From Callorhinchus milii (taxonomy: Eukaryota), in the NCBI RefSeq assembly GCF_018977255.1, contig NW_024704742.1, positions 29,452,001 to 29,516,000 on the forward strand: DNA of 64,000 bases, in the 5' to 3' direction. The translations under genes and the position numbers were made by a program. The first letter of the stretch is position 1, and each line of letters starts with the position of its first letter. A model generated the notes under the pieces. That model saw nothing but the letters and a program-made list of their open reading frames with translations, made no database searches and was not told where the DNA came from. Shown one piece after another: positions 43,201-46,200 of the stretch.

Positions 43201-46200
43201 GTATATTTTCACAGATATGGTGGGTCTCCTGTGCGCTGTGATCAAATGGCCATTGTTCACGTGGCCTGATATTCACGAGCACTACCCTGGATGAACAATC
43301 TCTTCTGGTTTTACCCTTCCAATTCCTGGGACAGCTAGGGCAAGTTTAGCTGCCACACCCAGTCACGGCTGAGACCAATAAATCAGTGAGCTCCCGTCCC
43401 CTTTAAGTGAATAGAACTGTTGCAGGGACTGCCCCAAGTGGGGTGAACAGTACAACCATTTTCAACAACCTCTCAGGGGACTTGAGTTTATAAGAGTGGT
43501 TTCTGAGTAAGGATTCATTGGTGTATGAAATGGAAGTGGTTGCTTGCGCATGTTTAACTGTGCTTGGAAGAGCCTCTTTGGCAAGTTATTTGCTTTATTT
43601 GTTTTAAAGGGCATCAGAATCATTCATGCATATGATCATGAATAAGCATTTTGTACTTGAGCAACGATTTGCACTGCAGCATACAGAATTAAATAATATT
43701 TTCATTAAACCTTGAGCAGTTTTTCTTTCTCTAGATTCTAGATATTAGTTGTCCTGGAAGAAATAATTGAATGTATTCACTTACATATAACTGTTGCAGC
43801 TTGTTAAGACACACCACATGTTCCCAAGCCAAATGTACTGCAATGTAAAGCTTCCTTAGTTTATTAGTACTGTAGTTATTTGCATTAAGGCTACATTTAC
43901 CACATTGCAACTAACTTCTAAGAAAGCATCCTTAAGAACTTGTTAAATGAGTTAACCAAATTAAAGGAACTTTTATTTCAAAAAATAAAATTTAAACATT
44001 TTCTCTTCCATTTATAGATGATGGGAACCTAGAACCACCTACGACTAGATTGTGGGTCCAGTACTTTTTAGCCCAGCATTATGATCGAATTGGACAACAC
44101 TGTCTTGCTTTGGAATACATCAATGCTGCGATTGAAAGCACCCCGACTCTCATTGAATTGTTCCTTGTCAAGGCCAAAATCTTCAAGGTAAAAAGTAGAC
44201 TTTGAGTAATCCATGTTACAAGGTTTTTAAGCTTTTAATATCTTGCCACAAAAGCAATTGACACCAACCTGCAAATGCATTTTTTTTTCAATGGGAATTT
44301 GTTGTAAGAAATTTCCAAAATTGGAAGGTTATTTAGCACTTTGACTTTACGTAATCTTGTAGCTTTCTGGTTGTGGTTTTAATACTTTATGTAGTACATT
44401 ATATTCAAGTCTGATAATGTAAGTAAAAATATCTAAACTGGCAGCCAAAAAAAATTTGTTCTTTTCTGTCTGCATTAATTATGTTTGGTATTTATCTTGC
44501 AGCATGCTGGGAACATAAAAGAAGCTGCCAAGTGGATGGATGAAGCTCAGGCATTGGATACGGCCGATAGGTTTATAAACTCCAAATGTGCTAAATACAT
44601 GCTAAAAGCCAACCTGGTGAAAGAAGCTGAGGAAATGTGCTCCAAGTTTACAAGAGTTGGTATCCTCATTCCGCAGTTGTAATCAAGACTATAAGATAGC
44701 ATTGCAAGTTTACCAATACCGTTGTAACTTGGTGTTTTGGAGTTCACAAAAAAAAGTAGGGGTGGGGTGGAAATCATACTTGTGACATCAGTCCTCAACT
44801 TATGTTACTTTATGCATACATTCCAGCAAGGAAACTGGATAGTAGTCAGGAGTGGCAAGTCCATCTGATTTATTTTTTGCTTTCCTTCTCCCCAACGTAT
44901 GTGAATTGTGGAATTAAGTCTATCCATACTTTAAAATAGAATACTTGTAGATTAATCTATGACGATGCAATGTTCACTGCTGTTTTCAAAACACGCCTTG
45001 ACGCTGTGCCAGAAGTTGCTAAGCACAATTTTTTTTGGTTTGGTTAAAAACAAACCATATGGTGGATAATGGATTGGATGTCATTTGGATGCTTTGGTTA
45101 AAAAAAAATGAAATTGCAATGCAAATGTGTTCTTAACATATGTGAATGTAATCTGTTTTATTAGGAAGGAACGGCTGCTGTGGACAATCTGAATGAGATG
45201 CAGTGTATGTGGTTCCAGACAGAGTGTGCTCTAGCTTATCAGTCGGTGAACAAATATGGAGACTCTTTGAAGAAGTGCCATGAAATCGAGAGAGTAAGTT
45301 ACAGAAAACATATTTTTGATGAAGTTGTGTGAATAATGCAATCCTTGTCCTGATCAACAGCCTAGATAATTGGTCATTCATTTCATAGTTGTTTATGGCT
45401 CCTGGTTTGTGTATATTGGTTGCTGTGTTTGCTTACAAATACACTACACTTGACAGCTATTGTCTTTGAAGCAACTTTAGAAACTCTGTAGCAAATGCGA
45501 GGATCATTCTTGTAATTGCATAATGGGAGTTACAGATAAGATGATTATCTAAATTACATCTAATCCAACATACTGAGAAACTGCAGAAGTCATTCTGTCC
45601 TTCTCAGCATGTGGGTGAATATAACCTTGAAAATTGCATTTATCTGTTAAAATAGGAGCTCTTGTAGCTGTACTCCGAATCAGGACATTCATTTTCTTCC
45701 ACTACATAACATAATTTGTTACTGAACAGTTTACTCCATGTTACTTTACTTACTACTTGTTCATAAGATTAATTAAAAAACACCACTAGTCAACCACTCG
45801 CAGTCACAGTTTTTCTTCAGTATTTGCATCATTTCTTTATTTATATCCAGTTATCTGGGTTTTGCCTTTTTTTTATTTTCCCTATCTGTTTTAAGCAACA
45901 TATTGTCGTCGTTCTTGACCTCTGCCTTTTCTTGTTTCATGATGACTTAATGTCATGGCACACAATTTTGTACAAAAGGAATCCATTTCAATATTTATTT
46001 TGAACATTTTCAGCTTTTTAAGAATAGCTTATTTGTCGGATTCCATGGCTGTACTGCAGGTCTGAATTCCTCTCTGCTACAATCCTTATCACAGCTGAGA
46101 GAAAGTGAAGTTCTCCCTAAGTGAAAGAGAGAGAGAAATTAGGAAAACCTGTGAATGGCTGCTTTTGTGGTGATCAGGGTAGTTAATTCAAAAGTCTCCT

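Follow-up and report, generated by a model that had tools for sequence, protein, structure and literature searches.

Intron 12 of NAA15 in Callorhinchus milii raises the question of whether a single intron position holds two sets of splice sites, one for the major (U2) and one for the minor (U12) spliceosome. The original prediction, made for the window (the whole 64,000-nt stretch of DNA that was analysed), was that nested U2-like and U12-like signals, both displaced by 4 nt, preserve the reading frame at this intron. We lean towards a plainer answer, that intron 12 is an ordinary U2 intron carrying coincidental, unconserved minor-like signals.

The 20-exon model of the gene, in which 44655 is joined to 45165, gives a protein identical over 865 amino acids to the C. 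milii RefSeq/UniRef record P0252; UniRef V9K994 is presumably transcript-derived. The junction is made up as follows.
44503–44655, + strand: NAA15 exon 12, 51 codons, ending in phase 0 with the residues FTR; matches human NAA15 residues 420–470 (E 1.7e-28).
44656–45164, + strand: intron 12, a phase-0 GT-AG intron of major type, 509 nt long and present once in the genome.
45165–45293, + strand: NAA15 exon 13, 43 codons; matches human NAA15 residues 471–513 (E 2.3e-20).

The GT-AG ends of intron 12 are those of the junction that gives the conserved protein, as in a major-type intron, and the terminal codons of exon 12 are ACA AGA. FTR/EG is found in all eight C. milii models that span the exon 12/13 junction and in all 12 listed cartilaginous-fish cluster members that span it, together with the cluster representative. 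E-G follows FTR in 101 of the 120 proteins listed in one protein search. Of the 120 listed in another, 114 cross the junction, and the residue after FTR is Glu in 109 of these, Asp in five and Val in none. Annotated proteins represent the dominant isoform only, and NMD-prone minor products would be missed among them. Protein searches returned no transcript-derived C. milii fragments across the junction beyond the named models (best identity in one search, 89%). The exon-12 peptide has one match in the genome, and no second NAA16-like locus was found with the full NAA15 protein, for which 19 matches among the best 29 candidates scored all belong to this gene. A repeat origin of intron 12 was ruled out by its single-copy sequence. 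Rfam found no structured RNA in the intron; its matches in the window are three tRNAs, all elsewhere.

At the 5′ end of the intron two motifs overlap.
44656–44661, + strand: annotated donor AGA/GTTGGT, with a poorer U1 match than any other of the gene's 18 non-U12 donors.
44660–44667, + strand: U12-type 5′ splice-site look-alike TTG/GTATCCTC, a motif match to /RTATCCTY.

The donor had been predicted to be weak, and it is: its U1 duplex of −4.2 kcal/mol is the lowest of the 18, with agreement at 5/9 consensus positions. Pairing in the 44660 register is equal, at −4.2 kcal/mol. The U12-type motifs were judged against catalogued human and mouse minor-intron examples, in the table of which the octamer GTATCCTC occurs 62 times and the form with G at −1 (GGTATCCT) 49 times. 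GT at +5/+6 belongs to the major donor consensus. The GT of GTATCCT would be the +5/+6 GT of the donor, and the adjoining AT may lengthen pairing toward the U1 5′ end. Alternative donors and acceptors in tandem, separated by a few nucleotides, are familiar; in them the GT at donor +5/+6 and an AG slightly inside the next exon serve as shifted major-type sites. They differ from the present case in that both sites are major-type, whereas the shifted donor of intron 12 also fits the minor consensus.

The window contains seven copies of GTATCCTY, compared with 3.26 ± 1.83 in shuffled sequences, 4 of 100 shuffles reaching seven, and GTNNGTATCCTY occurs 1978 times genome-wide against 2949 for its reversed control. 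Its placement 4 nt inside a donor is rare for any single gene, with a roughly estimated chance of <1% per gene, which still amounts to tens of such donors per genome.

The intron's 3′ end bears on the second half of the original prediction, the displaced 3′ site.
45130–45137, + strand: TTCTTAAC, which most likely serves intron 12 as its U2 branch site; the A, at 45136, precedes the acceptor by 28 nt.
45163–45164, + strand: acceptor AG (TAG/G) of the annotated junction, used in the model that gives the identical 865-residue protein.
45167–45168, + strand: second AG, inside the Glu-Gly codons GAA GGA; an acceptor in the public model P0255 only.

From the A at 45136 it is 28 nt to 45164 and 32 nt to 45168, and neither an AG nor an AC lies closer. 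The optimum for U12 introns is given as 11–13 nt (PMC3584512), and U2 branch sites are described as lying mostly 19–35 nt from the 3′ site (PMC5378181); the caveat already attached to the prediction, that the distance is long for U12, was well placed. TTCTTAAC has one mismatch to TCCTTRAY, lacks CC at +5/+6 and fits the U2 branch consensus too: TTAAC agrees with yUnAy, and its A, 28 nt before the AG, is within the U2 range of ~19–35 nt. In minor-like introns, a branch motif without CC at +5/+6 is tied to major-spliceosome use in the account of PMC11347168. TYCTTRAY shows no excess in the window (24 against 28.75 ± 5.48 in shuffles). The pyrimidine tract is modest, with 11/20 pyrimidines, among the lowest in the gene. 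The second AG is present because the conserved Glu-Gly codons GAA GGA begin exon 13; GAAGG opens the exon in 17/31 distinct orthologous contexts.

According to the original prediction, the two kinds of splicing share this 3′ region: U12 splicing from 44660 would use TTCTTAAC and the AAG ending at 45168, giving an in-frame Glu-to-Val isoform, and mixed pairs would be lost to NMD. The motifs lie where it placed them (GTTGGT at 44656, GTATCCTC at 44660–44667, TTCTTAAC at 45130–45137 and the AGs at 45163–45164 and 45167–45168), and its arithmetic was reproduced by script. Joining 44655 to 45165 reads FTR-E-GTAAV and joining 44659 to 45169 reads FTR-V-GTAAV, of equal length, while the +4 mixed junction reaches a stop after 12 codons, 97 nt before the exon 13/14 junction, and the −4 mixed junction after eight codons, 101 nt before it. 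At steady state NMD would be expected to favour the in-frame pairs, the catalogued minor branch sequences include TTCTTAAC 63 times, and P0255 does use the acceptor at 45169. We nevertheless think this arrangement very unlikely. Its branch A would be 32 nt from 45168 with a better TAG earlier, at 28 nt; one catalogue method, which searches no further than −40, would not cover the 12-mer; the motif has no CC at +5/+6; and Val would replace a residue that is acidic in 114/114 of the listed junction-crossing proteins. FTRVGT is carried by no protein among the eight C. milii models, the 120 proteins of the first list and the 114 junction-crossing proteins of the second. The nested U2-like and U12-like signals stand as observed, and their pairing as a U12 intron from 44660 to 45168, shifted by 4 nt at both ends, is not supported: the branch distances are U2-typical and the second AG comes from the Glu-Gly codons.

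The history of the position can be followed in other animals. An intron at exactly this place, in phase 0 between Arg and Glu, is present in 63/80 metagenome-derived animal loci, the other 17 having none. The 47 distinct orthologous donors are all major-type (GTCAGT in 17, GTATGT in four, and others), and loci of vertebrate-like, insect-like and annelid-like kind all have such donors at this same position. The conservation of GTATCCT that the prediction called for did not appear: RTATCC is found within 30 nt of none of the 47 distinct donors, which come from animals other than cartilaginous fishes. Read-through reading frames of other animals (n = 104) open the intron with Val (GTN), and VGIL, the peptide expected from GTNGGTATCCTN, is in 0/104. 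The bird-like contig L022 has the donor AGG/GTTGGTTGCG, with the same GTTGGT hexamer, and therefore GTTGGT serves as an intron 12 donor there without any U12 tail.

These data weigh on a suggestion that GTATCCT is the decaying 5′ site of an ancestral minor-type intron 12, left by U12-to-U2 conversion or by intron sliding. Such a conversion has been described as a route, by way of a cryptic major donor close by (PMC3584512). Against it, the position is major-type across animals; decay should leave a degenerate motif and the heptamer here is perfect; and the human and mouse catalogues, in the entries of PMC6717393, assign NAA15 and NAA16 a single minor intron apiece, the homologue of intron 3, with intron 12 unlisted. 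We regard a relic as highly improbable. A search of the literature by title, with supplements outside its scope, found nothing on an NAA15 minor intron or U12 splicing of the gene.

The site might instead act without being spliced, U11 on a single unspliced U12-type 5′ site helping to define exon 12 in the manner of the USSE (U11 snRNP-binding splicing enhancer) of the 48K/65K genes; by this analogy, to which we give very little credence, the weak donor of exon 12 would be assisted. A USSE requires tandem copies, and here there is a single copy. The motif is not conserved among the 47 distinct orthologous donors of animals other than cartilaginous fishes, and U11 binding should compete rather than help, because the site and the U1 donor have 2 nt in common. 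The precedent (PMC3584512) is U11 on 5′-site copies that are not spliced, by which a major 3′ site upstream becomes activated.

The prediction was right that the gene already has a U12 intron, which served us as an internal reference.
33399–34872, + strand: intron 3, genuine U12-type GT-AG; it shares its 5′ site with the one minor intron that is catalogued for NAA15/NAA16 in human and mouse.

Its signals are TCT/GTATCCTTT, then TTCTTGAC, then an AG 14 nt past the branch A. Intron 12 contains further U12-type signals within itself, absent from the prediction, and with them a small exon of the public model P0255.
44992–45003, + strand: U12-type branch-site look-alike, core CCTTGAC, branch A at 45001.
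45010–45012, + strand: CAG ending 11 nt past the branch A, where a nested U12-type intron may have its 3′ end.
45024–45042, + strand: 19-nt mini-exon of P0255, joined on to 45169; its donor G/GTTAAA is very weak.

Together with the 5′ motif these make a complete candidate U12 intron of 353 nt, 44660–45012, with 5′ site, branch and AG correctly spaced. The 5′ site TTG/GTATCCTCA is perfect from +1 to +7, and the branch core has 7/7 matches and carries the CC of +5/+6 as well as the C of +11, features tied to ZRSR2 binding and minor use in PMC11347168. The 11-nt distance from branch to AG falls inside the 11–13 nt optimum (PMC3584512); two later AGs, ending at 45015 and 45023, are 14 and 22 nt away. 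At the level of sequence, two site sets of different type thus lie at one position, as in a U2/U12 twintron. This better branch and 3′ site put the twintron idea in a sounder form: the minor spliceosome would remove the 353 nt, pairing 44660 with the branch at 44995–45002 and with the CAG of 45012 (alternatively, the AAG of 45015), and would compete with the weak U1 donor lying 4 nt upstream. We consider this possible but doubtful. It may represent a new minor intron in an ancestral major intron, either as neutral noise or as a link between NAA15 output and the minor spliceosome.

The rival donor is the gene's weakest, NAA15 already depends on the minor spliceosome for intron 3, and C. milii has genes for U11, U12, U4atac and U6atac (PMC11347168). 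Public annotation also contains both the mini-exon donor and the acceptor at 45169, in P0255, a model reproduced by one AG..GT..AG path only, that with the mini-exon 45024–45042. That model, however, omits exon 12 and joins the mini-exon to a major-type donor, and the mini-exon donor (45042/45043) has a U1 duplex of −2.6 kcal/mol. The nested-candidate junctions appear in none of the eight C. milii models spanning the junction, nor in the annotated proteins, which have the major-type junction only, and the 5′ motif is in 0/47 distinct orthologous donors of animals other than cartilaginous fishes. In minor-like introns a G at −1 is tied to major-spliceosome use in PMC11347168, and the G at −1 here speaks against minor use (PMC11347168, PMC10853781). 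New U12 introns are described as extremely rare (PMC3584512).

Chance provides a further measure. The strict branch-plus-AG arrangement occurs seven times in 128 kb, giving P = 0.024 for one within 444 nt; under a relaxed rule the background chance within intron 12 is 0.117. By our estimate, chance alone would place the 5′ site and the branch-AG arrangement together at about one or two sites in a genome.

The predicted products differ. Splicing of the nested candidate leads to a stop 12 codons on and a predicted NMD target, and combining it with the mini-exon donor joined to 45169 gives an in-frame isoform of +30 or +27 nt. That a complete minor intron, 44660–45012, has newly arisen inside the ancient major intron in the chimaera lineage, with NMD-prone products or in-frame products with a 27–30-nt exon via 45169, is in our judgement unlikely. 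If true, it would be a vertebrate major-to-minor twintron and could tie NAA15 output to minor-spliceosome activity.

Among the closest known systems is the insect Urp/ZRSR2 twintron, which also has minor-type signals in or beside an ancestrally major intron and whose minor product is reportedly eliminated by NMD. It differs in having transcript evidence and conservation among insects, whereas the NAA15 case is known from sequence, is unconserved and has its 5′ sites 4 nt apart (PMC3564746, PMC3584512). Urp is the only new-born U12 intron known to have been reported before. The 18 human twintrons of PMC3564746 (PRMT1, HNRPLL and SLC9A7 among them) likewise have U2 and U12 site sets at one intron position, some with small shifts in product (537 vs 536 and 725 vs 727 amino acids), and the nested U12 product of PRMT1 runs into a premature stop and NMD. 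They are, however, all ancestrally U12-type and conserved in vertebrates; NAA15 is not in that list, and its intron 12 is ancestrally U2-type. Introns that combine minor-type with major-type features are also classed as minor-like or hybrid in the Minor Intron Database, but those classes score one annotated pair of ends, and the ends of intron 12 are plain major-type with the minor set nested and the 5′ offset 4 nt (PMC11347168). The catalogued NAA15/NAA16 minor intron (PMC6717393) belongs to the same gene family and shares its 5′ site with intron 3 here; it is intron 3 and not 12, it is conserved, and the branch distance is 14 nt in this gene. Zebrafish naa15a/b and human and mouse NAA16 are listed among responsive minor introns in PMC11347168.

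Partial look-alikes are common in this genome, 931 minor-like and 449 hybrid introns having been counted in C. milii against 495 minor introns (PMC11347168). On the reading we favour, intron 12 would be an ancient, position-conserved major GT-AG intron in which splicing from 44655 to 45165 is productive and keeps the conserved acidic residue. The minor-spliceosome look-alikes would be lineage-specific coincidences overlying ordinary signals: TTCTTAAC is probably the U2 branch site at a normal distance of 28 nt, and the second AG would be forced by the Glu-Gly codons. The look-alikes would then have no role, or at most leave a trace of unproductive use. If they are indeed unused, the locus illustrates that a dual intron can be mimicked by codon constraints combined with a weak major donor and a normal U2 branch, a caution for motif-based minor-intron calls. 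If the nested candidate is used, a vertebrate would here offer a rare view of a minor intron being born within a major one. Reviews describe change in the major-to-minor direction as almost unseen (PMC3584512), and a newer proposal has it pass through minor-like intermediates (PMC11347168).

Three features of the locus count against coincidence: the weakest U1 donor of the gene, the full set of U12 signals, and the use of 45169 together with the mini-exon in P0255.

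Our NAA15 model has 20 exons between 15074 and 54192 and, with the junction 44655>45165 at intron 12, its translation agrees at every one of 865 residues with P0252, a Callorhinchus milii NAA15 record in RefSeq and UniRef. The window is C1:29452001–29516000 in an assembly totalling 991.5 Mb. The features relevant to intron 12 are as follows.

15074–15127, + strand: exon 1, inside a GC-rich stretch (14001–16000, 65% G+C)
33399–34872, + strand: intron 3, a textbook U12-type GT-AG intron, TCT|GTATCCTTT ... TTCTTGAC ... AG, whose end lies 14 nt past the branch A
44503–44655, + strand: exon 12, human NAA15 residues 420–470 (E 1.7e-28), 3' end ...TTT ACA AGA
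44656, + strand: start of the intron 12 donor GTTGGT, read from the sequence
44660–44667, + strand: U12-type 5' splice-site look-alike GTATCCTC, read from the sequence
44992–45003, + strand: U12-type branch 12-mer with core CCTTGAC, CC at +5/+6, C at +11 and branch A at 45001
45012, + strand: end of a CAG, 11 nt from branch A 45001
45015 and 45023, + strand: ends of further AGs from the intron scan, AAG (14 nt) and TAAG (22 nt)
45024–45042, + strand: 19-nt mini-exon of P0255, a C. milii protein model (UniProt, automatic annotation) that skips exon 12 and joins the mini-exon to 45169
45130–45137, + strand: branch-like motif TTCTTAAC, read from the sequence
45163–64 and 45167–68, + strand: two AGs, at the 3' end of intron 12 and 4 nt inside exon 13, read from the sequence
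45165, + strand: start of exon 13, human NAA15 residues 471–513 (E 2.3e-20)

The donor, GTATCCTC, TTCTTAAC and both AGs are thus where the original prediction placed them. It had paired them as two introns shifted by 4 nt, a major one (44655>45165) and a minor one (44659>45169). By script, the second junction does exchange Glu for Val with the length unchanged. The mixed junctions were expected to cause frameshifts and probably NMD, and this expectation holds: 44659>45165 adds 4 nt and gives a stop 12 codons on, 97 nt upstream of the exon 13/14 junction, and 44655>45169 removes 4 nt and gives a stop after 8 codons, 101 nt upstream of it. The protein records, which report the dominant product and in which rare or NMD-prone products are not visible, show 44655>45165. 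FTR|EGTAAV is found in 8/8 C. milii models covering the junction and in 12/12 listed cartilaginous-fish cluster members covering it, plus their representative; UniRef entry V9K994 is presumably derived from an assembled transcript. Among 120 proteins listed, 101 read E-G here and 16 run into the intron; exon 13 is skipped in 2, and 1 carries two additional residues. In a second set of 120 shorter proteins, 114 cross the junction, with Glu in 109, Asp in 5 and Val after FTR in none. The vole and turtle models (P0008, P0019) read FTR|HF..., so that exon 13, of 43 codons, is skipped in frame, and the mouse-like model P0022 has two additional residues, RQ, ahead of EG, consistent with use of an acceptor 6 nt upstream.

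The donor was rightly called weak. AGA|GTTGGTAT matches 5/9 consensus positions and, at −4.2 kcal/mol, pairs with U1 more weakly than any other of the 18 non-U12 donors of NAA15; within the gene, only the genuine U12 donor, that of intron 3, pairs less well with U1. U1 pairing in the 44660 register is as good as at the annotated donor. GT at +5/+6 is part of the major donor consensus and is present in 9/18 major-type NAA15 donors. In the canonical register U1 pairs at +1, +2 and +5 to +8 of the intron 12 donor, with a wobble at +4, so that the GTAT of GTATCCT may extend the U1 pairing and offset the poor −1, +3 and +4 positions. The motif TTCTTAAC fits yUnAy and its branch A lies 28 nt from the TAG acceptor, with no closer AG or AC in the intron sequence scanned. 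The distance from branch to 3' site is mostly 19–35 nt for U2 introns and shorter for U12 introns (PMC5378181), whose optimum is 11–13 nt (PMC3584512), so the caution already voiced over a branch-to-AG distance of ~30 nt was justified. The second AG falls within the codons GAA GGA, and exon 13 opens with GAAGG in 17/31 distinct orthologous contexts. All three signals (donor-side motif, branch motif, second AG) therefore have ordinary explanations. The pairing 44660–45168 is very unlikely, as its branch lies too far away for a U12 intron and it would place Val at an invariant acidic position. Separately, the ~140 nt upstream of the acceptor (45024–45162, by eye) are free of AG, which makes a distant branch site possible.

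The ancestry of the intron was followed in exon-12 relatives on metagenome contigs (of 212 matching stretches, 149 were confirmed and the best 80 kept), which include no cartilaginous fish and reach 94% exon-12 identity at best. In 63/80 of these best loci an intron lies exactly after the Arg codon and in 17/80 there is none. The distinct donor contexts are major-type in 47/47 (GTCAGT 17, GTATGT 4, GTGAGA 3, GTAAGT 3, GTGAGT 3, others), and RTATCC is found in the first 30 nt of the intron in none of the 47, no cartilaginous fish being among them. The GTATCCT-type motif is thus not conserved among these loci, and the proposal of a U12-to-U2 conversion or sliding relic is contradicted by their major-type donors at the identical position. 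Short ORFs running from exon 12 into the intron on genomic contigs gave a readout of its first codons. Of 132 such proteins, 106 fit the pattern and 104 of these are read-through, all starting with Val (GTN; VR 45, VS 27, VC 15, VG 13, VK 2, VT 1, VN 1). VGIL, expected from GTNGGTATCCTN, occurs in 0/104; VGII was seen, by eye only, in 1 of the 26 outside the pattern. Two contigs with exon-12 peptides equal to named bird proteins begin the intron AGG|GTTGGTTGCG and AGG|GTTTGTTGCA, so GTTGGT is also the donor of intron 12 elsewhere, without the U12 tail. We consider it most likely, if only somewhat probable, that intron 12 is an ordinary ancient major intron whose minor-like signals are unconserved and coincidental.

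The intron scan found a better U12 partner for the 44660 site than TTCTTAAC, the 12-mer at 44992–45003, absent from the original prediction. Together with the CAG at 45012, these signals outline a candidate U12-type intron of 353 nt that lies within the major one and whose GT-AG signal set is, on sequence grounds, canonical and complete. The idea of a dual U2/U12 intron has a better footing in this nested form than in the 4-nt-shifted pairing, which fails on branch distance and would lose the acidic residue. Strict branch-plus-AG arrangements number 7 in 128 kb (window, both strands), so that one or more would fall within 444 nt with P = 0.024; under a relaxed rule there are 36 (P = 0.117). 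Real use of this nested intron, probably yielding unproductive transcripts, seems to us possible but doubtful: no signal of the set is missing and the major donor with which it competes is weak, yet the signals are not conserved in orthologous donors and the 44660 site has G at −1. Minor-like introns with this G are reported not to respond to minor-spliceosome inhibition, which associates it with the major spliceosome (PMC11347168, PMC10853781). According to the same sources a branch motif that has CC at +5/+6 favours minor use; TTCTTAAC lacks it. The variant features GTATCCTC, TTCTTAAC and GGTATCCT occur 62, 63 and 49 times in the human/mouse minor-intron table. Splicing 44659>45013 with the remainder retained gives a stop after 12 codons. 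If the donor 45042|45043 were then also joined to 45169, the product would be in frame (+30 nt; +27 nt for 44659>45016); this donor is very weak (U1 duplex −2.6 kcal/mol). Only one AG..GT..AG path, via 45024–45042 and 45169, reproduces P0255, whose mini-exon is paired with a major-type donor. Sister models of P0255 run into introns, a hint that these models may have been built from RNA. The mini-exon lacks a pyrimidine tract.

As originally noted, the gene already has a U12 intron: intron 3 shows the U12-type 5' site, the branch motif and an AG at 14 nt. It is the homologue of the single minor intron catalogued in human and mouse for each of NAA15 (TGT|GTATCCTTT) and NAA16 (TCT|GTATCCTTT) (Olthof et al. 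2019, PMC6717393). Minor introns of zebrafish naa15a and naa15b and of human and mouse NAA16 respond to minor-spliceosome loss (Olthof et al. 2024, PMC11347168), and intron 12 is absent from the minor introns listed in the supplement rows of both papers. Comparable published cases are the Urp/ZRSR2 twintron of insects and 18 human twintrons, in all 18 of which the U12 intron is ancestral; NAA15 is not among the 18 (PMC3564746). Intron 3 also holds a branch-like motif TCTTTAAC at 33772, 373 nt past the 5' site and with an AG 11 nt on, so genuine minor introns do carry such decoys.

The window has 7 copies of GTATCCTY, compared with 3.26 ± 1.83 in shuffles (4/100 reach 7); on the gene's sense strand its sole occurrences are the donor of intron 3 and the 44660 site. 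TYCTTRAY is not enriched (24 vs 28.75 in shuffles), and GTNNGTATCCTY occurs 1978 times genome-wide vs 2949 for the reversed control. C. milii has about 215,000 introns (PMC11347168). By rough estimate, chance would place the octamer at +5 of tens of major donors per genome, and together with a strict branch-plus-AG in the same intron about once or twice; the pattern is thus rare for any one gene, yet expected somewhere across many windows. Three more GTATCCTY (2138, 2222, 3226, +) lie within 1.1 kb of one another, upstream of NAA15, where G-over-C skew is strong (+0.26 at 2001–4000); no tandem repeat was found behind them.

An own-genome search gave one NAA15/NAA16-type locus (19 matches, all within NAA15, among 29 scored candidates), compared with two each in human, mouse and zebrafish. 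The stretch 14001–16000 around exon 1 is probably a CpG-island promoter, and intron 1 is 14 kb long. In the C. milii models P0003, P0254 and P0255 the exon 11 match begins at 44032, not 44017/18, which points to a possible alternative acceptor some 15 nt into exon 11; a TAG is present there. Rfam tRNA matches lie at 11836–11907 (+), 61176–61246 (−) and 59530–59591 (−), the third just above the gathering score.
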